Source: a virus. Taken from it: 64,000 bases of DNA. Both the position numbers and the translations under genes were made by a program. The notes under the pieces were generated by a model. That model was given only the letters and a program-made list of their open reading frames with translations, was not told where the DNA came from and ran no database searches. The stretch spans positions 32,001 to 96,000 of the IMG/VR virus record IMGVR_UViG_3300027881_000007, one strand, 5' to 3'. Positions 543 through 21,761 of the stretch are shown one piece after another. Position 1 is the stretch's first letter. Every line of letters begins with the position of its first letter.

Positions 543-1202
543 TTATACAATCTCCTCACACGGAGGTATAGGAATCACCTCTCTAGCAGCCACAAAGTCG
601 AAATACAGTTCAATTACAAAGGCCTCATAACAACTTTGTAAGACTTCAAATGGTTGAGAGATAAGAGTTGTAGTATCATAGACTGAAGTGTCCTCATCAA
701 TCTTCAACTTCAAGTACACCCATATCAACTTTGATAAATCAGTACTTAGAGCATCTAGTGAGGCATACAAAGTTATTGACGCAGTTGAATCAACTAGAAC
801 TACTGAGGTTGAATCAACCAAATTAACTCTAGTTGGGTCAATGCGATATGCCAGTAGAGTATTTAGTAGGGTAAAATCATCTGGTTGGAGATGAAATAGA
901 TTAAATGCATTAGTGCTGTCACATACTTCATACACCTTGGCGGAAGCATATACCGTTATTCTCTCCCTTACCATAGCTGGCCACTTAGACTTACTCTCTA
1001 TATCTTGGAAAAGATATTCATACTCAGTAAATGGATATGATTCATCGAACAGGAGTTGAATGAATGATTTTGGTTTTAGAAAGAGAGTGGGAATTTCAAC
1101 AGGATAAGGTATCTTATCTTTATTGAGATTCCTGTAAACGACTGCCCTACTAAACCAATATTGTAATTCATTTACTAAACTTGTGGAAAATGGTAACGTC
1201 AT
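543..1202 (-). CDS. Hypothetical protein, probably structural
   Basis: 219-aa ORF tightly coupled to its neighbours, upstream of the baseplate-like gene. Confidence 0.6.
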   Translation of the reverse strand: MTLPFSTSLVNELQYWFSRAVVYRNLNKDKIPYPVEIPTLFLKPKSFIQLLFDESYPFTEYEYLFQDIESKSKWPAMVRERITVYASAKVYEVCDSTNAFNLFHLQPDDFTLLNTLLAYRIDPTRVNLVDSTSVVLVDSTASITLYASLDALSTDLSKLIWVYLKLKIDEDTSVYDTTTLISQPFEVLQSCYEAFVIELYFDFVAAREVIPIPPCEEIV

Positions 1203-1891
1203 TAAGACTCCTCTTTCGAAATGAAAGAACTAAGTACCATGTAAATATGTCCTTCAAACTCGTGTGGATCCATACCTAATTCATCAGCAAAGGCATGTAC
1301 TTGTTTATCCGAAGGATTTGGATTGGCTTTAAAGAATTTTATAATTTTTGCATGAATGTCTCCACTATCTTCTTGTTCATGCACTGGTTCAGCAGCCTCA
1401 GCTTCAGCTTTAGTTGTCTGTACAGTTCCAGACGGATGATTTGGGGGAGAATAGACTGAATAAAGTTTCAAGTCATCTTCATCCGAGATATTAATAACAT
1501 TGTGTTTAGTTCCAGCTGGTATAACAAATGCTGAACCATCTTCTATTAATATCTCCTTTCCATTTAGGACTACTTTACCTTTTCCTGCTTCAATCCTAAT
1601 AAATTGATCAACATTGGAATGATTCTCTTCTCCAATATCTTCACTAGGCCGAATGCTCATCAATACTAACTGAGATTTTGTAGCAGTATAAAGAACCTTA
1701 CGAAAATTCTTATTTGCTATCGTTTCCTTTTCAATATTAATAAGAAACCCATCAGGAGCTTTATAAATATCAACTTCGTGAGCAGCTTGCTCATACATCT
1801 CACGGATGCATTTTTTCTTAATGGGTCACCACCTCATCCCGGGCGGACAATCTTTCTTCTCAGATAAGTGTTTCAGGTAACTGTCGATCAT
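1202..1891 (-). CDS. Cupin-domain protein with N-terminal targeting-like peptide and in-frame UGA at 1826-1828 (candidate selenocysteine)
   Basis: Cupin motifs IGEENHSNVDQFIRIEAGKG and VIPAGTKHNVIN. A GGAGG RBS precedes ATG at 1891, which is in frame with ORF 1202..1798 and reads MIDSYLKHLSEKKDCPPGMRW*PIKKKCIREMYEQ. Confidence 0.75.
1793..1811 (-). promoter_or_regulatory. Candidate bacterial SECIS-like hairpin
   Basis: AUGCAUC-CGUGA-GAUGUAU, 7-bp stem, starting 14 nt after the UGA. Confidence 0.55.
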
Positions 1892-1897
1892 TTTAAA

Positions 1898-3070
1898 CTA
1901 CCTCCTAAACTTAATATTTGGTAGAGGGTACCATGGATGCATTGGTGTATATACTTTAGGTTCAACATCAACTTCAGTTTCACTCTCCTCTTCCGTTTCA
2001 ACATCAACTATGTGCTGTTTGGCATCTCTTTCAGTTGTAAATTCAATTGAAAGTTTGCTCAGTACATGGGTAATAGGATTTGATAGTGTAGTATTATCTG
2101 AACCTGCAAATAGCAACCCTACAGCATTGTTATCCATATCCAATACTAGGGAGCCAGAGTCTCCACCATCACTCATGGGACCAGACATTATTTGGTCTTC
2201 AAATAGAGCAATAGGTCCACCATAATTAACCTGTGCTGTTACGTGGAGTTGAATGACTACACCTTGAGTATATCCAGTTGTTCGACCACTTTTCTGAATT
2301 GGTGTTCCAAGAGTTGGTTCAGATACTCCCTTGACATAACCAATTTCAAGTATCATCAACTCCATATCTTCAAACTTAATTGGGGTAGCTATGGCACAAT
2401 CGACTAGATTAGGATCACCCGGTTCAGCTTCCTTAGATAGAGAGAACTTATGACTTGAACCAAGTAGTTGTCCTATCTTATTGAGTACCTTCTCAATAGA
2501 ACCAGCTATAGGACATATAGGTACTGTATCACCAGAGAAGGAGATGGGCACATAGTCGAGTAGACTAGCTACGGTGTCTTCTTCACGGCCACCATCAATT
2601 CTCCCTGGTTGAAATATGGCATCACCTATGGCAGCTTCATTCGAGTTAGCGAACACGTGATTATTACTCAATAGGAGAATATCATCTCCACGCTTAACAA
2701 ACGCACCAAGAGTTCCTGCAGTTATATCTTTATGTCCCATAGATACACCAGCGGGATATGGCCTCCACCAATCACTTCGTTCTTTTAACGCAACAAATTC
2801 TCCTGTCTCAGTAACATCTGTCTTCGTGCCATCACCTACTGTCTGTGGTATCACATCCTTAGCCGGCAACTTCTCAATAGGGAGTTTCTGCTTAACAGAC
2901 ACAACAACACAAACCTCACTTGTAGCTACTCCGGCCACAGTTTTTAAACCAACTCCCACCGCCACCACGTTGGCCTTCTTAAGAAGATCTTTCTTACTCT
3001 CATTCACAACGTTTCTGACAATCTCTATGGTACTCATGAGATACTCCTTAATTTCAAAGTAGTCTGTCAT
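1898..3070 (-). CDS. Trypsin-like (S1/Nal1-type) serine protease
   Basis: Catalytic triad motifs LSNNHVFA, VDCAIA and GGDSGSLV; also KSGRTTG. Confidence 0.9.
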   Translation of the reverse strand: MTDYFEIKEYLMSTIEIVRNVVNESKKDLLKKANVVAVGVGLKTVAGVATSEVCVVVSVKQKLPIEKLPAKDVIPQTVGDGTKTDVTETGEFVALKERSDWWRPYPAGVSMGHKDITAGTLGAFVKRGDDILLLSNNHVFANSNEAAIGDAIFQPGRIDGGREEDTVASLLDYVPISFSGDTVPICPIAGSIEKVLNKIGQLLGSSHKFSLSKEAEPGDPNLVDCAIATPIKFEDMELMILEIGYVKGVSEPTLGTPIQKSGRTTGYTQGVVIQLHVTAQVNYGGPIALFEDQIMSGPMSDGGDSGSLVLDMDNNAVGLLFAGSDNTTLSNPITHVLSKLSIEFTTERDAKQHIVDVETEEESETEVDVEPKVYTPMHPWYPLPNIKFRR

Positions 3071-3073
3071 ACA

Positions 3074-3517
3074 TTAAAGAAGAATTTTCGACCAACGAGA
3101 TTCCTCAAATCTTTGCTCAAGGGACGCCTTCGCTTCATCACCATCTGGCGACTTAAGCTCCCCATCCATAATAAGAGACATAAGTTCATGCAGGTCAGCC
3201 TCTCCGATGTTCTTGATAAAGTCCTCTTTAGCAGATTCTGGTATTTTCTCCGATTCTTTGACTACCTCACTAATATATATCCTAAGACTTTCTGTCTTCA
3301 ACTCCTCCACCTTTTTATCATTATAAGCCCTACTTGAATCATCTTCATATTCTGAATCTTCTCCAGTCATAGGATCTTTCTCAGGGGCACCAGCAGGTTC
3401 CCCAGGTGGAAGAGGTTCTTCTACTTCATCGGGATCAACCATCTCAACCATTTCCTGCTCATGTAGTATTTGTTGTTTCTCATCACCGTACAATTCCTCT
3501 AACTTTTTTGTTGGCAT
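3074..3517 (-). CDS. Acidic hypothetical protein, probably virion/prohead-associated
   Basis: 147 aa, E/D-rich, GAGG RBS. Confidence 0.6.
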   Translation of the reverse strand: MPTKKLEELYGDEKQQILHEQEMVEMVDPDEVEEPLPPGEPAGAPEKDPMTGEDSEYEDDSSRAYNDKKVEELKTESLRIYISEVVKESEKIPESAKEDFIKNIGEADLHELMSLIMDGELKSPDGDEAKASLEQRFEESRWSKILL

Positions 3518-12552: not shown

Positions 12553-12876
12553 TTATGTCATCTTGTATGGATCAACTATAAGCCATTGCTCATACTCCCA
12601 CCGCCTCATATTAACTAATACATCACAATTGTCGTCGGTTCTAATAAAGATCCATCTTCGGGTGAAACCAGTTATGACCCCACGCTTACCTCTAACCTCT
12701 ACCTTCACATTAATGCTCAGTCTCTTATTGACCATGAAGTAGAAGTATGCGACCATGCTATCAATAAAGTTCTTGAGAGCTAACATGACTCCAAATGCAA
12801 TAAGAGTTTGAAATAGGAACCACCATAGTTGCGGTTTAACTGCTGTCATTATTTCCATCATCTCCTTCTGTCCCAT
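12553..12876 (-). CDS. Membrane protein with MscS-like beta domain
   Basis: Hydrophobic N-terminal half followed by VKVEVRGKRGVITGF. Confidence 0.5.
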   Translation of the reverse strand: MGQKEMMEIMTAVKPQLWWFLFQTLIAFGVMLALKNFIDSMVAYFYFMVNKRLSINVKVEVRGKRGVITGFTRRWIFIRTDDNCDVLVNMRRWEYEQWLIVDPYKMT

Positions 12877-13482
12877 AACATATCTCCTTCTCTCTTAAGT
12901 ATTCTTTTACTATCTGTATAACTCGACTTCGTATGTCATTGAGCATTTTCTTAGTTCTTAGATGTTTTGGTTGATAAAGAGTCTCGTCGTCATAGAATTC
13001 CTGACCAATTCGTGAGTAAATCTCTTTTAAATGCTCACAAGACTCTGAACAGTTTACATATATTAGGCACTGTGAGCAAATTAGGTCATTTATCGGATCT
13101 GATAGGTTTTTCACTGTTGAGTCGATTTTGACCTGCTCACGTGGATCCTGCGTAAAAATTTTCTTTCTAATCATGGTGCATCCAACCGCCGCCTTTTCTA
13201 ACTTTTTATCTGGATGAGATTTTTTTATGGATCGGTCATACCCAATCTTGTATAGCACTAATTTTTTCCATCATGTAAGAGAATGATCCAGATGAAGGGG
13301 ATTAAGATAATAAGGAGCGTCATACAAACAATTAACTTAACGGGTTCCTTTAAAGCTCCTCTTCTCTCCTCTTGTCGCTCATACTTCCTCTTATCCTCAC
13401 AGGATATAGAACAAGCAGATATAATTAAGCAAGCGGGACAAGGATCCCTCAGTCGGGTAAACATCCACTTTTTCATACTCAA
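12836..13482 (-). CDS. Two Cx2Cx5Cx3C family proteins (12836-13258, 13258-13482)
   Basis: CSQCLIYVNCSESC and CPACLIISACSISC. Confidence 0.65.
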
Positions 13483-13710
13483 GATCCCACGAATTTTTTA
13501 GTATCCAATTTTTCACCCTATATAGGAGTTTCAACTCCATCTTCATCCACCTTAGAGTCCATATAGAAAATCAAACCCCCACATATAATCATATGGATAA
13601 AGAAAGCATTCCATAGACCCATAACAGGTAGACTAATGAAAATAGCAATTGCCATATTCAATACCACCAGGGTTATCCAAGGGTAGAACCACATTCAGTC
13701 TTCCCCCTCC

Positions 13711-14145
13711 CTACCTTATACCATTAATTATGTCATAATTCTTCTTCACAAAAGCAAGGGCCTTCTTTTTACCCTTCTCCTCCAACTTCCTCATTAATAC
13801 CTTAACTTTCTCATCCTTGTCTTTCAACCCTTGCATATTTTTATCTAATAGTTCATTATACTTTTTCTTCTTCTCAGGATCTGTGGTCTTAGTGATCACT
13901 TTCTTAAGGGCACTAATGGCACATCTCTGGTGACATAGGATTCCTAACTTGCCACTCTTTGACATATACTGAACATATAGCATCCCCGGAAGGGTACCTA
14001 ATAGGAATCCTGTTGCTGTCTTGGTACTCAACTTTAGTAGTTTATCACACCTTCTATTACATGGTATGACCTCTTTCATAAATTCTTTGCCATAATATGC
14101 TTCATGTATGTATAACTGTTCTAAATAGGTATCCATTATTTCCAT
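13711..14145 (-). CDS. Putative virion internal protein
   Basis: Start reassigned to MEIMDTYLEQLYIHE after a GGAGGAG RBS; hydrophobic segment and paired Cys. Confidence 0.55.
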   Translation of the reverse strand: MEIMDTYLEQLYIHEAYYGKEFMKEVIPCNRRCDKLLKLSTKTATGFLLGTLPGMLYVQYMSKSGKLGILCHQRCAISALKKVITKTTDPEKKKKYNELLDKNMQGLKDKDEKVKVLMRKLEEKGKKKALAFVKKNYDIINGIR

Positions 14146-14365
14146 CTTAACTCCTCCCCCTCCCCCTGTCCTCAATCCAATAAGGGGAATCCTCATCTAT
14201 ATTCAATAGTTTACCACAATGGTTACAGTATGCAGGGTACCCATCCATTACATAGGAAAATGTGTGCATACTCATACCTTTACATAGGGAGCAGACAAAT
14301 TTATCCAACCTCTCATAGTCTACAGCTTCTTTCAATTTTTCACCTCCCTCTCCTTAGAACAATCC

Positions 14366-14821
14366 TTAAATGGTCATCTCTATATTCATTACTGTATCAG
14401 GATGCAATATCATATCGTCTTTGTTTATATGCCAATAGTCTTTAGTAGTACCACCAAACTTACGGGACATACCATCCCAATCTGCAATCATCTGTTTAAC
14501 ATACTTCATTGGCATAGGTATGGGGATTATCTCGTCTTTCCTAGTTACACTGACCCAATAATTCCAGTGGTGTTTATTTCTCTTTTGATGCCTTAACCAA
14601 CCCAACTGAAAGTTCATATTGTGTTCGTCAGACTGTTTGTACTCCTCGGTGCGATTTGTCTCATTAAAAAACCTTGCATATGGAATAAACTCTGACGGCA
14701 GAAACTTTGATAAATCATGGGTTATGCCATGGATGAATTGCCTAGACTTGACACACTCTATAAATACATTCCATTTATGCTCACACACATACCAAAAGTA
14801 TCTCCAGTACATACTACTCAA
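14366..14821 (-). CDS. HD-like conserved phage protein (DUF5662-like)
   Basis: HKWNV...HDLSKFLPSEFIPYA...HQKRNKHHWNYW...MIADW. Confidence 0.7.
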   Translation of the reverse strand: MSSMYWRYFWYVCEHKWNVFIECVKSRQFIHGITHDLSKFLPSEFIPYARFFNETNRTEEYKQSDEHNMNFQLGWLRHQKRNKHHWNYWVSVTRKDEIIPIPMPMKYVKQMIADWDGMSRKFGGTTKDYWHINKDDMILHPDTVMNIEMTI

Positions 14822-14956
14822 CCTCTTGTTCTCTTATATCAGAACAATCCTCACAGGTATATTCCATCTCCTCTCCTACAAGGAAACATACCACAGGTTC
14901 ATTACTTATCATAGGGTCTATCTGTTTATTACAGTCAGAACAGTTCACATTAACTC

Positions 14957-15220
14957 CTATATATGCAGGAACAATGATGCCATAGCTCCACCAAATAATA
15001 TTACCCAAAATATCAACTTCATAGCTTCCACTGTATCAAATAGGTTCTTCCTAATCACACCACACCTACTATTATATAAAATACATTGCTCACACACTTC
15101 AGTACATATAGTTTCAATGAGGCATCTCTCACAGGGGTTTCTTAGTATCTTAACCCTGTTGAGTCCTTCTATCAACTTGTCATCCCATATCCATTGACGG
15201 TCATCCATATTGTCATCCAT
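14957..15220 (-). CDS. Cx2Cx5Cx3C family membrane protein
   Basis: CERCLIETICTEVC plus C-terminal TM segment. Confidence 0.6.
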   Translation of the reverse strand: MDDNMDDRQWIWDDKLIEGLNRVKILRNPCERCLIETICTEVCEQCILYNSRCGVIRKNLFDTVEAMKLIFWVILFGGAMASLFLHI

Positions 15221-15262
15221 CCCAACTCCTACCTTGAAAACTCAGAGTCCAAGTCCGAATTT

Positions 15263-15673
15263 TCATTGAGGTCCATACTTGGGTAATGTGATCCAGGGTT
15301 TTTTGTATTCAGTCTTGCTAAAACTAACCTTCTCTGAATAATAACCATTTGATTCACCTAACCATCTAATGGTCACAGAACCTATAATGGTTGACAACTT
15401 ATAGAATGTCCATGTAAAACTCTCACTACCATACTCCACAGAGTGGTCGTGCTTCTCATTACTAACAACCTCTTCGGCCAACAGTATGGGGTTACCAATT
15501 AAATCCTTTAAATCTCCAACAACATCCACGATGTTGACGGTTTCACATCAGTCTTTGGCATGATACATCTTATATATATCACCTTCTTCGGTGGTAAATG
15601 TCATCTCCGTACTGCCTACATTACCATTGATCTCCTTTATGATCTCATTTTTCATTTCTTCGAACCTTGCCAC
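15263..15673 (-). CDS. Conserved phage protein with in-frame UGA at 15548-15550 (candidate selenocysteine)
   Basis: GGAGG RBS then GTG at 15673 (or ATG at 15655), in frame with ORF 15263..15529: ...[35 protein letters not shown]...TWTFYKL...[12 protein letters not shown]. The family normally reads DCCE (recalled). Confidence 0.75.
15520..15536 (-). promoter_or_regulatory. Candidate bacterial SECIS-like hairpin
   Basis: CAACAUC-GUG-GAUGUUG, perfect 7-bp stem, 11 nt after the UGA. Confidence 0.6.
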
Positions 15674-15963
15674 TTGTCGTCCCTCCGCCTCAATTCAAAT
15701 TGATACTCATTACCGTCCCTGAACTCCAGCCTGTGGATACACAACTCCCACCATAGTAGTTTAATGGACTTCCATTTTAGTTTGATTGTCATCTTCAACT
15801 CCTTGAACTCTTCCATCAACTTAATGTATTCGTCTGCAGCTATCTTATCTATAATATAAGTAGAACTCATGAGGCTGTGTCTTTCTAATCTCTGTATGAT
15901 ATTGTTCTTCATCCTTTCGATGACTCTATCTATTGCATCATTCCATCCTTTGTAATAGTCCAT
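15652..15963 (-). CDS. Hypothetical protein
   Basis: 103-aa ORF; YYKGWNDAID N-terminus. Confidence 0.5.
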   Translation of the reverse strand: MDYYKGWNDAIDRVIERMKNNIIQRLERHSLMSSTYIIDKIAADEYIKLMEEFKELKMTIKLKWKSIKLLWWELCIHRLEFRDGNEYQFELRRRDDKWQGSKK

Positions 15964-15969
15964 AATCCG

Positions 15970-16543
15970 TCACTCTACGAGAGTGTCCACAATATAGTTT
16001 AGGTTTTCTATTAACTCGTCCTCACTAACCTTATATGTACATCCTCCTAACCATCCCATCATTGCTCCATAAACTGTATGATAATTCTGACACGCTCCAC
16101 TACATATAGTGAATACTAGACAGTCTGTGCATATTTCTCTAACAACCAATGTTACTACGGCCATTAAATCCCATCCACTTCGAATGATCTTTGTGTGATC
16201 TTGTGCGGCCAAGTTTATACTGCTATGGTTGTATTTGAAGTCTGCCACACTGGGGATAATGTCAATTTTCTTCATGATTGCTGTCATCTTCTTCTTTAAA
16301 CTCCTTTAATATAGTCCAGAACTTCTCTTCTATTCTCTTTTTAGATACATTTAGGTCAGCTATATCTACTAACCATTTCCACATACGACCATAGACCGCG
16401 TCGAAACTAGGGCAACCTATGGTGCAAGTCGATACCACGAGACATTCCTTACAGAGGTTTTCGTCTATTAGGGGTCTGGTTGTCTCTGTGGCATCTTGAT
16501 ATAATGCCTCGACCCTCACTTCGAGGTCATGTATGTTGGACAT
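15970..16543 (-). CDS. Two Cx2Cx5Cx3C family proteins (15970-16287, 16262-16543)
   Basis: CTDCLVFTICSGAC and CKECLVVSTCTIGC; shared xYGxMxxWL helix. Confidence 0.7.
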
Positions 16544-16925
16544 CCTTTATAATCTCCTTGAAGTCTATTATATTCCAAAAGTCCGTAAAACCTTGACAGG
16601 GTAATTTCCAACCCATATGTGTAGAACGCCAGTTGGTATCACCCCACATACCAATGCTGATTTTAGATTCGCCACACCTCTCACAGTACCACATCTCTCC
16701 GCCACCAATCCATTTGTGGGTACGGTCATATCTATAGACTTCTCTATCACTTATAGTTGTCATACTTAGACTTCCAGGGCTTCCAGTAGTAGGGACAATA
16801 TAAACCTTTTTTACCTGCCTGGGGGCTGTGGCAATAACATACTCTACCTATCTTTATTCCGTGCATACAATAACCTTTTATATTCATTTTATGCCACTCA
16901 CATTCATTTTGTCTACTTTTAAATT

Positions 16926-17213
16926 CTATGATAATTCTCCACTCACATAGTCTAAACCGAGGCACTCCCATAGGTCTTCTCTTAAACTACCATATACCCA
17001 CCAAGTGCAATGCTCTCGTCTTATAGTGTGACAAGTAACACAAGTTTTGAATGTATTGAATCGACCATCCCATTTACCATTAACTCTTTCATACTTCTGC
17101 CCTGGTAGAATCGGTTCACCACATTCACAACACTTATGGGTCTTCCTGGCAACTACAACCTTCTCTGTAGCAAACTCAGGCATATCGCCCGTGTCATTAC
17201 ATACACATTTCAT
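16926..17213 (-). CDS. Zinc-finger phage protein
   Basis: ARKTHKCCECG...GKWDG...KTCVTC. Confidence 0.65.
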   Translation of the reverse strand: MKCVCNDTGDMPEFATEKVVVARKTHKCCECGEPILPGQKYERVNGKWDGRFNTFKTCVTCHTIRREHCTWWVYGSLREDLWECLGLDYVSGELS

Positions 17214-17727
17214 GTTGAATCTCCAATCTCTATTTGCTTGTTCTTAAATAGGTTTTCGTGACCCTGAAAACCAGGGAACAGCTGATAATAAGATAGTCCA
17301 TCTGCCTTAATTTCATCTAATTCAACAGATAAATGTGTAGGTATAAAGTCTCCTGAATATTCAGAACTTTTATTTGAGAGGTATATATTTGTAACTATAT
17401 GTCCAGTCTCTTGATGGAATTTATATAATAGTTGGGCAAGTCGGGATTCAAGTTCACACCTCTTCTTCTTTATTTTCTCTAGGTCTTTCATCTTCTTCAT
17501 TTCAACTCCTTCTCTTTGAGGACTTAGACTTCAGTTTCTTGATTTTGTGTCCCTTCACTTTGTGAGGTGGCAACTTATAACCTACAAGCTCCCCCGAGAA
17601 TCTGCCAAATACATCCATGGGTTTTAGTCTTTTATTGCACACGGGACATCTATATTTCTTATCATTATCGTCGAACCATGCTTCACCAGTACACCAGTCG
17701 CTCATTCTAAATCTCCCATGACCTCCC

Positions 17728-18326
17728 TTACCTTCTCGCTTGCTCAACTAAACCTTCTATTCTGTCTAATATTCCTAAGTAATTTAATTCGCCGGCCGTG
17801 TACTTGTGCTCATTATCATTTAACCACTGTACCATGCTTTTATATGTATCTAAGTACTCTGAACACACAACTTTACACACTGGGTCAACTAAACATTCCC
17901 CACATACTACACCTGATATAACAGTTAGTACTTCTCTAGCCGTGGGACCACACTCAAATTTATAGTTTAAACCTATCATCTTAATATTTACTGTTGGCTT
18001 CTTACATCCCTTTAGTTGTTGGTGTTCCTTCGAACCGGACGGGATGTTTATATAAATGGGGTCTACTGCTGTTAATTTATCTCTCATTATTTCCATCAAT
18101 TCCCCCAAGTCTCTACTAACTCGTCTAGTTTTATTTTGAACTCATCTTCTGTAACATTGTATCCTTTTATCCTGGAGAACCAACTTATCATTGTTCCATG
18201 TATCATGGAGTAGTTGTGACATGACATTTCACATATGAAACCAACCAGGCAGTCCTTACATACAACTTCCTCTATAGCAATTAATATATGTCTACCCCAT
18301 CCCGGTTTCCATTCTACTTGCTCCAC
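17728..18326 (-). CDS. Two Cx2Cx5Cx3C family proteins (17728-18108, 18096-18326)
   Basis: CGECLVDPVCKVVC and CKDCLVGFICEMSC. Confidence 0.7.
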
Positions 18327-18574
18327 GTTTCACCCTTCTTCCTCTGTATTACACTCATTGCCTGCCTGAGAAAATGTTGCTCAACCTTCTTTGTATAGGG
18401 ACGACTTTTGTCTATTCTACCAGTTGCACGTTCCGCCCAATCATACTTTCCTCTGCCGTCACAATGAGGACATACAATTGCCTCTGGTTCAAATGGTTCA
18501 TCATTCGTGGGTGCTAATACTAGTCCAACTCCACTACATTGACCACATAAATATTCACCCTCTTTTAATCTCAC
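18314..18574 (-). CDS. DnaJ-type zinc-finger small protein
   Basis: CGQCSGVG...CPHCDGRG. Confidence 0.65.
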   Translation of the reverse strand: MRLKEGEYLCGQCSGVGLVLAPTNDEPFEPEAIVCPHCDGRGKYDWAERATGRIDKSRPYTKKVEQHFLRQAMSVIQRKKGETWSK

Positions 18575-19463
18575 TAAATCTATCCTTCCATGTTTCGTGT
18601 GTAATCAATATAGCCTTCGCTCGATGTGAGAGTATACCTTTAGCTTCAAATACTTCCCATAGTTCATCACAGACTTCACTACAGTTCATAAACAATATGC
18701 AGTCACTACATTTCTCTTCGACTACCTGAGTTGCCTTGTCGGCCATCTCACTCCAGTCTTGTTTGTTCTTCGTTATTTCTCTTGGGAATAGTTTCACTTT
18801 ATATAATCTCCCCATCTATCAACTACATGTCTCACTCGATGTGCCATACTTACAGGGGTTATGAGATCTAAAGGGATATTGATATTATTCTCCCTTAATA
18901 CCTCGTATAAGTCGACACAGGATTCGCTACATCTGGTGTACAATAGGCATCCCTGACATTTCTCTAAAATAATTTCAACTAATCTTTCAGCTTCTCTCAT
19001 TTAATACTTATTCCTCCACGCATTCCGTATGAGTATACCCATTACTCGATGTGTATAGATTTTCTCCCTTTCAAATTCGCTCCACAACTCATCACAGACT
19101 TCACTACAATTCACTTGTACTATACACTTTTTACAATGTCCTCTAATAAGTTTAAGAGCTCTATCCACTTTTTCATTATCTGATAGTTCACGATCCTTCA
19201 TATGGAACCTCTTCACTTGTAACAGTATGCTTAAGAAACTTAACCATAGTTAGAATGTCTTTTTCTTCCATATCCCCTTGTGCTTTAATCCTCTCTAGAG
19301 AGGTCATGTATATCTCATTAAACTCGGGGCAAATGTCAGAGCATGTTGTACTAACTAAACAATCAGGACAGAGCACTTTGACTATTGTAATCGCCATTAC
19401 TCTTATCGCTCTGGCTGGAACTTGAGGTTGATTCGTTGCTTTGTGACTATAACTATGTCTCAT
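18555..19463 (-). CDS. Four tandem Cx2Cx5Cx3C family proteins (18555-18815, 18794-19000, 19001-19216, 19188-19463)
   Basis: CSDCILFMNCSEVC, CQGCLLYTRCSESC, CKKCIVQVNCSEVC, CPDCLVSTTCSDIC. Confidence 0.75.
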
Positions 19464-19693
19464 TTTAGAGCATCCAGTATGGCAACTACATGGTTGCCCG
19501 TCGCACCACAGTAACCATTATATGCTTCTGGAACATTAATGTCCCACGTCTTAATAACATCCCACACAGCGTTAAATTCAGGTGTCTCCAGTTCTTCTGG
19601 TAGTGGATCTCTCCACTCGATTGGGTTCTTCAGTTCATTCACTTCTTTCACTTCTCTCTTCATTCGCTTGTCTCCTTTTAACCAAATAACCAA
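19460..19693 (-). CDS. Conserved hypothetical phage protein
   Basis: FNAVWDVIKTWDINVPEAYNGYCGATGNHVVAILDAL. Confidence 0.55.
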   Translation of the reverse strand: MVIWLKGDKRMKREVKEVNELKNPIEWRDPLPEELETPEFNAVWDVIKTWDINVPEAYNGYCGATGNHVVAILDALK

Positions 19694-20476
19694 TGAGCAA
19701 AGTCTAACAGTACCATATCTCTAAACTTTAAAATGAATCCATATAATCCGAAAACAATCAAAACTAGATATAAAAATCCTAAGAACATCGCAATAGTTGC
19801 TAGTGCAGATGCCAGGACTGCCAACCAGTGAAGTATTTTACGCCACCAGGGCAGTCCGGCATACCATTTTTCAAATGGTTTAGGATATTTCTGTTTAACT
19901 TTTGCCACTGCAAAATCCTATGCTTATCATTTCTTAAATAAAGATTTAACCCACTCAACAAACTTATCAACGTACTTCTTCACCAACGCTGGTTGTGCAA
20001 TAAAATTCCAACCAACTATTAAACCTATTCCAAAACTAATAATAAGGTCCATAATAATTGCCTCCTAGTATGGTATGATTGTGATTAAATCGGCCACCCC
20101 ATAACCTCCGTGGCCATTGCCCTCGCAGTTGTGCATATTAAATAGATGATCTCGGGGCACTTTGAATGTATTACTAATTAGGACATCCTGTAAAATTTTA
20201 TCTGGTACTATTTTCTCTTCTTTGTAAGTTAGTCCACAGTTTCTACAAGTGTAGACGAACTCGTTTTCCATGTTCCCTCCTCCTTCATTCGTTGTATATC
20301 ACTGACTTTTGTAAGATGACACCCACAAGTACACCATGTGAATCTTTTATCCTTTTCAAATAGTTCATATTCCTTTTCTTGTTTAAATCTTTCTATTGAT
20401 TCTGGAGACCATGTTTGATTACAGTTGTAGCATTTCCATAACCATCTATAATCATCTGGAAGTTTTCCCATTGTTT

Positions 20477-20668
20477 TTACTCCCAATAAATACAGTCAAC
20501 GGGGCACACTTCCATTGCCTCTGCTATACATTCTTGATCAGTACTATCTGGGTCGATAACTTCTGCCAGCTCTGTGGACTCATTAAAACGAAATATGTCA
20601 GGACATACAATGACACAATTTTCACATCCATTACATTCATCCGCATCTATTCTAACTCCTTTAGCCAT
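20477..20668 (-). CDS. fdx: Single-cluster 4Fe-4S ferredoxin
   Basis: CNGCENCVIVCPDIF...ECIAEAMEVCPVDCIYWE. Confidence 0.9.
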   Translation of the reverse strand: MAKGVRIDADECNGCENCVIVCPDIFRFNESTELAEVIDPDSTDQECIAEAMEVCPVDCIYWE

Positions 20669-20679
20669 ACCTAACTCCT

Positions 20680-20907
20680 TTATGTATATTGATGATTCTT
20701 CTGTTCTTTCACATCTCTTGCCATTGATAATAACTCCGCTTTACGTTCAACTGTTCTATCGTGATGTCTAGTGTCTGCACACATTATCATTAGATAATCT
20801 ATGCCTTCACAGTATTCACTACAAGTTGCTCTAACTATACAACCTTTACATACTATTTCTTTAATTGCTTTCTTACATTCATTATACATACGAATATGTT
20901 CTTTCAT
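20680..20907 (-). CDS. Cx2Cx5Cx3C family protein
   Basis: CKGCIVRATCSEYC. Confidence 0.65.
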   Translation of the reverse strand: MKEHIRMYNECKKAIKEIVCKGCIVRATCSEYCEGIDYLMIMCADTRHHDRTVERKAELLSMARDVKEQKNHQYT

Positions 20908-21289
20908 CTACGGTCCTCTGCAAGTTTTCTCTTAAACGCATCTACACATCTTCCGCATATGTCATATTCTTCTTTAAGTTTTTCAATGTATGATTCGCTT
21001 CCGTCCCATACTTGTTTAGAAGGATACAAATCAATACCGCAGCATCCTCGGGATGATCCTCCTTTTATGTGCACTTTCTTAGATTTTGAGGTCTGTTTAA
21101 CAATTAGAACAAGTTTTCTAGTACCAACTCTTGCCTTTGCTCGTCTTTTCCTTCTTCTTTCTTCTAGTATAAAGTCTGGAACTACTCCACCAAATATGGA
21201 TCTACAGGGACCCATGTGTGCCTTTCCACAATCCCAACACCGATCAGTCATCTTCGTCTCCTTCACTATTCACAGATACTCATCTTCAC

Positions 21290-21556
21290 TTATACATATA
21301 CTCCAACAATGATGCCACCGATTGTAAAAAATAAAAGATCTAATGCTGTATCGTCCCAATGACCTATAGGCCATTGATCAATTGTTTCTCGGGGTAGACC
21401 TAATAGAAAACCGCTTATCCCTCCCATGTACCAGTTGGGATTACTAGCTATAGGGTATAATGCAATTGCTGCCCAAGCTAAGTGAAAGAGTTGATCAAGT
21501 CTTTTTCTCCATGTCTTACCAATCAATTCATCAATCTTGTCTTTAATAGCCATCAT
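21290..21556 (-). CDS. Small membrane protein
   Basis: Three hydrophobic segments; DQLFH...E...D pattern. Confidence 0.55.
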   Translation of the reverse strand: MMAIKDKIDELIGKTWRKRLDQLFHLAWAAIALYPIASNPNWYMGGISGFLLGLPRETIDQWPIGHWDDTALDLLFFTIGGIIVGVYV

Positions 21557-21761
21557 CTTCCCCTTTAGTTAGTCCTTTCGCACTATCTATAGCTAATTGC
21601 TTAACCTCATCTGGAGACAACCTTCTACCTATTCTCCCCTCTATTGTATTCATTTGTCTATAAACGGGATTGAAAACTTCGCGATATGTATCGCACGGCA
21701 TATCACAAGTAGCATGAACTATACAACCTTTACATATTATCTCGACGACTTCTTCGATCAT
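21543..21761 (-). CDS. Cx2Cx5Cx3C family protein
   Basis: CKGCIVHATCDMPC. Confidence 0.65.
   Translation of the reverse strand: MIEEVVEIICKGCIVHATCDMPCDTYREVFNPVYRQMNTIEGRIGRRLSPDEVKQLAIDSAKGLTKGEDDGY

Follow-up and report, generated by a model that had tools for sequence, protein, structure and literature searches.

We describe a phage gene of the DUF7448 family in which an in-frame TGA stands where its relatives have a conserved cysteine, and which probably encodes a selenoprotein: judging from the gene and its homologs, selenocysteine (Sec) would be inserted at the UGA by SelB and tRNA-Sec of the host. TGA occupies the homologous codon in nine family genes with available DNA, belonging to about seven divergent groups. 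A UGA at a conserved Cys together with an RNA hairpin, common to several phages, is the standard signature of selenocysteine; we infer both the identity of the residue and its insertion by the host machinery.

The gene lies in a stretch of 64,000 nt (the window), bases 32001–96000 of a linear 113,344-bp IMG/VR virus record that is ~36% complete (CheckV) and whose DNA was found in seawater metagenomes. The record encodes a Gp23-type major capsid protein with ~25% identity at most to that of any cultured phage, the nearest being those of phiR1-37 and of Staphylococcus jumbo phages; near the capsid gene lies an ORF weakly similar to IS110-family transposases (E = 9e-4; window 55854–57017, plus strand, and 58860–60317, minus strand). 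Four kilobases of the window gave no megablast match in phage records, and the sequencing runs matched to the stretch included no RNA run.

Organization of the gene

The first-pass annotation, made from the DNA letters, had described a frame that runs from a start with a ribosome-binding site to YHAKD, a UGA and then Cys-Glu, with a perfect hairpin 11 nt beyond the UGA. All of these elements were found as described, on the minus strand (Table 1), the stem beginning 11 nt 3′ of the TGA and the loop being spaced 18 nt from it. In the annotation produced by gene callers, only the last 88 codons appear as a protein (P0002); the analysis thus exposes an annotation error, by which gene callers shorten TGA-form genes to a fragment of 88–95 residues. 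The gene is surrounded by many small paralogous ORFs with a Cx2Cx5Cx3C motif (window 12836–21761, minus strand), among them those at 14957–15220, 15970–16287 and 16262–16543.

Table 1. Elements of the putatively recoded DUF7448 gene (window positions) and family genes carrying TGA at the same codon
Feature	Position	Strand	Description and basis
Whole recoded gene (proposed)	15263..15673	minus	136 sense codons + stop; DUF7448 / phrog_2650; proposed Sec is residue 42; translation
Ribosome-binding site GGAGG	15682..15686	minus	8 nt before the GTG start; sequence read directly
GTG start	15673-15671	minus	sequence
N-terminal 41 codons, GTG to Asp41 (...YHAKD)	15551..15673	minus	aligned to the family's N-terminal strands; dN/dS
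In-frame TGA, proposed Sec codon	15548..15550	minus	opposite the first Cys of D-C-C-E
SECIS-like hairpin	15516..15540	minus	7-bp upper stem, loop GUG, 3-bp lower stem across a U-U mismatch
Hairpin upper stem	5' arm 15536-15530, loop GUG 15529-15527, 3' arm 15526-15520	minus	perfect 7 bp
C-terminal 94 codons, from Cys43-Glu44 (Cys-Glu-Thr-Val...)	15266..15547	minus	conserved WTFYK and GESNGYYSE blocks (alignments A1, A2)
True stop, also TGA	15263..15265	minus	internal control: a second UGA ends the same mRNA
TGA-form genes	window, L082, L083, L085, L087, L090, L029/L103, L105, L106		DNA read

A conserved cysteine lies opposite the TGA

When the TGA is read through, the protein is a full DUF7448 domain (PF24240; 86.7 bits, E = 1.7e-24, profile positions 2–104 of 104, cut-off 27) and matches phrog_2650 with E = 4e-42. 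The family comprises 3,110 representatives at E ≤ 1e-10, and tblastn matches in 159 phage records span the position of the TGA; cultured Bacillus and Pseudomonas phages with a Cys-form homolog are among them. Its consensus, ...YKLYHxQDCCESV..., agrees with the motif MYHxQDCCExV given in the first-pass annotation, and the TGA aligns with the first of these cysteines. That annotation had also proposed looking for a Cys opposite the UGA in homologs: both Cys of D-C-C-E are at least 90% conserved in an alignment of 60 sequences (A2), and Cys-Cys is found in ~144 of 150 representatives (a 50%-identity set).

TGA recurs at the same codon in divergent relatives

Among 75 distinct family genes with DNA, an unbiased sample, 66 read TGY-TGY at this site and nine read TGA-TGY; L088, an additional match cut by the end of its contig, stays outside the count of nine. 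Cys-Glu follows the TGA directly in all nine, and in all nine the upstream frame is open, with a start 38–44 codons before the TGA behind GGAG-type sites, the exception being L090, whose first in-frame start lies 151 codons upstream. Two of them, L082 and L083, are JGI metagenome contigs found with a pattern for the C-terminal tail shared by close relatives. Both carry TGA at this codon, preceded by a ribosome-binding site and 41 intact codons, and both share the hairpin of the window gene. In viral contigs the tail pattern had no match, and a single-protein search found no related loci there. In IMG/VR, a first DNA pattern (TGA-Cys-Glu in family context) recovered the more distant members L085, L087, L090 and L088, four of its six matches being true family genes, and a second TGA-Cys-Glu pattern recovered L103/L104, L105 and L106, likewise more distant, with true family genes in all six matches. 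Eight more database proteins, 72–82% identical, are ORFs of 89–95 residues that all begin at the same residue and therefore share the break.

A search for Y-H-x-x-D-TGA-C-E in 185,579 prokaryote genomes (596 Gb) gave 12 matches, all due to chance, and no TGA form, and therefore no tie of the TGA form to a Sec-using host. On the family tree the TGA forms correspond to six label changes, only one of which is forced by well-supported branches; as the tree is poorly resolved, an independent origin of the TGA forms is not established.

These data bear on the reading in which ribosomes pass the UGA but insert a standard amino acid, either Trp by a near-cognate tRNA, with the hairpin stimulating readthrough, or Cys by a tRNA-Cys that reads UGA together with a SelB-like factor; recoding of UGA to Cys has reportedly been proposed for some Deltaproteobacteria. 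We regard this reading, taken with both of its routes, as unlikely. It accommodates the Cys-Glu retained in every TGA form, which indicates that translation continues past the UGA, and two further observations that also weaken the Sec reading: the failure to find Sec machinery in the phage fragment (see below), and the D-W-C-E present at the site in P0005, P0006 and P0007, the closest full-length database relatives, from ENA contigs of 626–827 bp. However, Trp is an unlikely functional substitute at what is the best-conserved Cys of a large family, and none of the 150 representatives has Trp at the site. The Trp forms come only from these short contigs, where gene prediction may settle on a code with TGA = Trp; the Trp may be a TGA read under a table-4 gene model, which we suspect to be its source, or a true TGG.

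The segment upstream of the TGA is under purifying selection

Across the 41 codons before the TGA, comparison of the window with L082 and L083 gave dN/dS values of 0.09–0.19 at dS 0.3–1.7. The selection estimate was taken from these codons, since a variable linker that does not align inflates the C-terminal dN/dS. The 41 codons encode a working part of the protein and not a dead leader. Conservation upstream of the UGA and decay in close relatives had been named beforehand as observations that could decide for or against the gene; the former was found, as purifying selection, and of the latter there was no sign, close relatives keeping the TGA.

It is accordingly quite improbable that the gene is broken or split, that is, either a pseudogene or a 41-residue peptide and an 88-residue C-terminal protein made separately, the latter from a restart at a GTG six codons after the TGA. 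A split gene would agree with the C-terminal ORF of 88–95 residues that is all the gene callers give in the window genome and its eight relatives, and an in-frame GTG does exist at 15529–15527. This GTG, however, is the loop of the hairpin and is without a ribosome-binding site before it, and no restart codon is conserved across the other TGA groups. Moreover, the codons between the TGA and the GTG are conserved, the near-invariant Cys-Glu included, and its retention after the TGA in every TGA form contradicts termination followed by downstream restart. A broken gene is opposed by the low upstream dN/dS, and decay would not place TGA at one codon in some seven divergent groups while sparing all other codons.

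A SECIS-like hairpin follows the TGA

By RNAfold the window hairpin has a free energy of −9.7 kcal/mol, with a z score of −1.49 against dinucleotide shuffles, 16 of 200 of which fold as well; alone it is only modestly above chance, and its significance therefore rests on the comparison with relatives. Each TGA form has a stem-loop with its apical loop 15–24 nt after the UGA; most carry a G at the first or second position of the loop, and sequence and register vary between the stems. Shuffling of synonymous codons over the next 45 nt, with the protein held fixed, gave a mean z of −2.08 (−0.07 to −3.93) in the nine TGA forms versus −0.10 (sd 0.85) in the 66 Cys forms (Mann-Whitney p = 3e-5); a smaller set agreed. 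Three of the nine come from the window's own group and cannot count as independent, but the other TGA groups show the same hairpin signal. The hairpins of the TGA forms are thus not explained by the protein sequence. Consistently with this, there is not one synonymous change between the window and L083 in the 30 nt around the hairpin, versus a dS of 1.1 in the 41 codons upstream of the TGA, and L082 carries an A-to-G change in the hairpin that keeps the pairing as G-U.

The published rules for bacterial SECIS (bSECIS) elements ask for a loop of 3–9 nt, an upper stem of 4–16 bp, a G in the first two loop positions, and a distance of 16–37 nt from the UGA with an MFE ≤ −7.5 kcal/mol (PMC13188914). 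The window hairpin passes all four in our own strict script (GUG loop, 7-bp stem, 18-nt spacing, helix of −8.6 kcal/mol), in agreement with the SECIS-like nature ascribed to it in the first-pass annotation; in all, four of the nine TGA forms pass versus five of the 66 Cys forms (Fisher p = 0.01). The Sec reading is weakened by the modest z score of the window hairpin and by the five TGA forms that miss at least one rule, most of them narrowly. Relative to readthrough as a standard amino acid, delivery of the SelB type needs a conserved hairpin with a G-containing loop 15–24 nt after the UGA, as is seen here.

One Cys form, L001 (TGT TGT, near 3001–3351, plus strand), has an 11-bp hairpin at the place where the TGA forms have theirs (z = −2.7) and is the only outlier among the Cys forms; it may carry the relic of a SECIS element after a switch from Sec to Cys.

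The TGA is present in three assemblies and TGA is a stop codon elsewhere in the genome

Confirmation that the TGA is real had been asked for at the outset. Logan contigs of three seawater runs, at 12–18x, are identical to the window over 15000–16500, TGA included, and a fourth run yielded an identical 175-nt contig across the TGA (runs X1–X4 in all). The codon is thus unchanged in the contigs of three assemblies; these runs may be the source samples, and their agreement rules out an assembly slip rather than offering independent biology.

Of 184 ORFs chosen greedily from the 113-kb genome, 52 end in TGA (~28%), which bears out the earlier observation that there is no genome-wide reassignment here, under table 4 or table 25. 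It is hence most improbable that TGA is a sense codon throughout in the phage or its host (table 4 or 25), a reading for which the in-frame TGA itself speaks and nothing further. The TGA-terminated ORFs include the DUF7448 gene itself and its upstream neighbour, whose TGA stop lies at 15654–15652, inside the first codons of the DUF7448 gene; genes are densely packed under table 11, and in every one of the related loci TGA ends ORFs. A scan of the coding strand of the 113 kb for stops with at least 35 open codons on each side turned up no further in-frame TGA that was convincing.

A second in-frame TGA, at 1828–1826, was noted within window 1202–1891 (minus strand): an ATG at 1891 with a GGAGG site opens 21 codons (...CPPGMRW), followed by the TGA and an in-frame cupin ORF (Cupin_2, phrog_13536), with a 6-bp hairpin (loop CGUGA) ~21 nt downstream of the TGA. 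The cupin homology is limited to residues 46–168 and we found no homolog with a leader upstream of this TGA, which could be a Sec codon or else the end of a short upstream ORF.

Search for selenocysteine machinery

In the 113-kb record, itself only ~36% complete, we found no SelA, no SelB winged-helix domain, no SelD-type AIRS_C domain and no credible tRNA-Sec; ARAGORN called no tRNA gene in it, and Rfam gave no match at gathering scores. Nor was a tRNA-Sec found in five further phage records, which include a complete genome of 43.9 kb bounded by terminal repeats. The phage of L087 has an ordinary tRNA array, in which ARAGORN also lists one tRNA whose anticodon has four bases (taga) and to which no amino acid is assigned (L087 2984–3060, plus strand).

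The window contains a tRNA-shaped RNA at 53279–53422 (plus strand; RNAfold z = −4.8), followed by an intrinsic terminator at 53424–53461. The acceptor stem of this RNA has 9 bp and its D stem 6 bp, with a 4-nt D loop; the T arm closes with the usual TTCGATT loop, the anticodon arm is odd (CTA, G at position 33), and there is an insert of ~67 nt. In Rfam it matches tRNA-Sec best, but with just 18.2 bits versus a gathering score of 47, ARAGORN makes no call for it, and no relatives were found in phage records or viral contigs. Just after it begins a repeat-spacer-like array of the 10-mer AGTGAACCAA, with 16 copies on one strand at 53527–55013 (plus strand; 0.2 expected by chance), mostly 36–37 nt apart or at multiples of that distance.

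A phage with a selenoproteome of its own and a partial decoding apparatus, in which this RNA would help to decode the UGA of the DUF7448 gene and that at 1828–1826 and Sec use would not be wholly host-dependent, seems to us a very doubtful proposition. The Sec reading of the DUF7448 gene draws on neither this RNA nor the second in-frame TGA. If selenocysteine is supplied by the host, as we propose, the phages exploit its SelB system, and a Sec codon common to several uncultured phage groups implies dependence on it; the gene would then serve as a host marker, because the host of such a phage must decode Sec.

Fold and probable active site

The AlphaFold model is confident (pLDDT 87.9) and mostly beta-strand, with residues 42–43 between strands 33–37 and 45–52. 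The best fold matches were weak ones, to PIM7, an immunity protein of polymorphic toxins (8owu_E; Z = 6.4, with an rmsd of 2.9 over 88 residues; Foldseek E = 0.036), and to an uncharacterised Neisseria protein (5v77_B; Z = 5.0), both below the level that separates such matches from common arrangements. A PDB sequence search with the family profile gave no match, a protein-atlas search with the Cys-form homolog P0015 gave no functional lead, and the literature searched contained no publication naming DUF7448.

In almost all cases Sec takes the place of a Cys that is catalytic or binds a metal, which makes the first Cys of D-C-C-E the likely active residue, as a redox or metal-binding site that would include the Sec-Cys pair; a selenenylsulfide might form between Sec42 and Cys43. 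The TGA would in this way pinpoint the probable active site of an uncharacterised family with thousands of members.

Discussion

In the course of events that we propose, translation would begin at the GTG at 15673 and proceed for 41 codons up to the UGA at 15550–15548, where the downstream hairpin, with its GUG loop 18 nt after the UGA, would act as a bacterial-type SECIS. SelB of the infected cell, with GTP and Sec-tRNA(Sec), would bind this hairpin and deliver Sec at the UGA in competition with release factor 2, after which 94 further codons would be translated up to the ordinary UGA stop. The predicted product is a 136-residue DUF7448 protein in which the vicinal Cys-Cys pair becomes Sec42-Cys43; when Sec is not delivered, only the 41-residue peptide would be made. 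Zhang et al. (PMC1088965) set out the criteria by which new selenoprotein families are defined in metagenomes; all three hold here, and by those criteria the TGA forms of DUF7448 are, at the level of sequence, a selenoprotein family. DUF7448 / phrog_2650 was not found among the described selenoprotein families. In the literature searched this is the first selenoprotein signature for a phage gene, and it places a selenoprotein of bacterial type in a new setting, phage genomes.

Ribosomes also pass a UGA in another phage gene, A1 of Q-beta, where programmed readthrough inserts Trp and gives a longer product, which is the likeness to the gene described here. In A1 the identity of the inserted residue is irrelevant and the extension is an added domain, whereas the UGA of the DUF7448 gene interrupts one conserved domain at the position of a conserved Cys.

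The first-pass annotation had remarked that selenoproteins are barely documented in bacteriophages, and our searches agree: we found no description of a phage selenoprotein gene in the literature searched, in which the viral ones are only the glutathione peroxidases of two poxviruses, molluscum contagiosum virus and fowlpox virus (PMC8310308). A 2026 review (PMC13188914) and the BSepDB paper (PMC13326102), both on prokaryotic selenoproteins, leave phages and viruses unmentioned. In huge wastewater phages, tRNAs have been annotated as Sec tRNAs and selenoproteins speculated upon, with no Sec-containing phage gene named (PMC10747093). Both that report and the TGA-form gene suggest that phages engage with the Sec system; there the evidence is tRNA annotations only, whereas here a gene is identified and no credible phage tRNA-Sec was found.

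The poxvirus glutathione peroxidases are virus-encoded and wholly dependent on the Sec machinery of the host, as we propose for the DUF7448 gene, and the fowlpox SECIS lies inside the coding region, as here. They differ in being host-captured genes of known function with a SECIS of eukaryotic type, whereas the element here is of bacterial type and the family is specific to phages.

The closest parallels are bacterial selenoproteins with a SECIS inside the ORF, such as E. coli fdhF and the marine Sec/Cys families (PMC1088965, PMC2398784). As in these systems, the UGA stands opposite a conserved Cys and is followed directly, within the coding sequence, by a stem-loop with a small apical loop, G first and then U, at a spacing of 16–37 nt; the TGA forms, too, are few and dispersed among the Cys forms. 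Unlike them, the DUF7448 gene is carried by phage genomes, its protein family is a phage one, and its putative Sec would form a vicinal U-C pair instead of the CxxU or UxxC thioredoxin-like motif that is common in bacterial selenoproteins.
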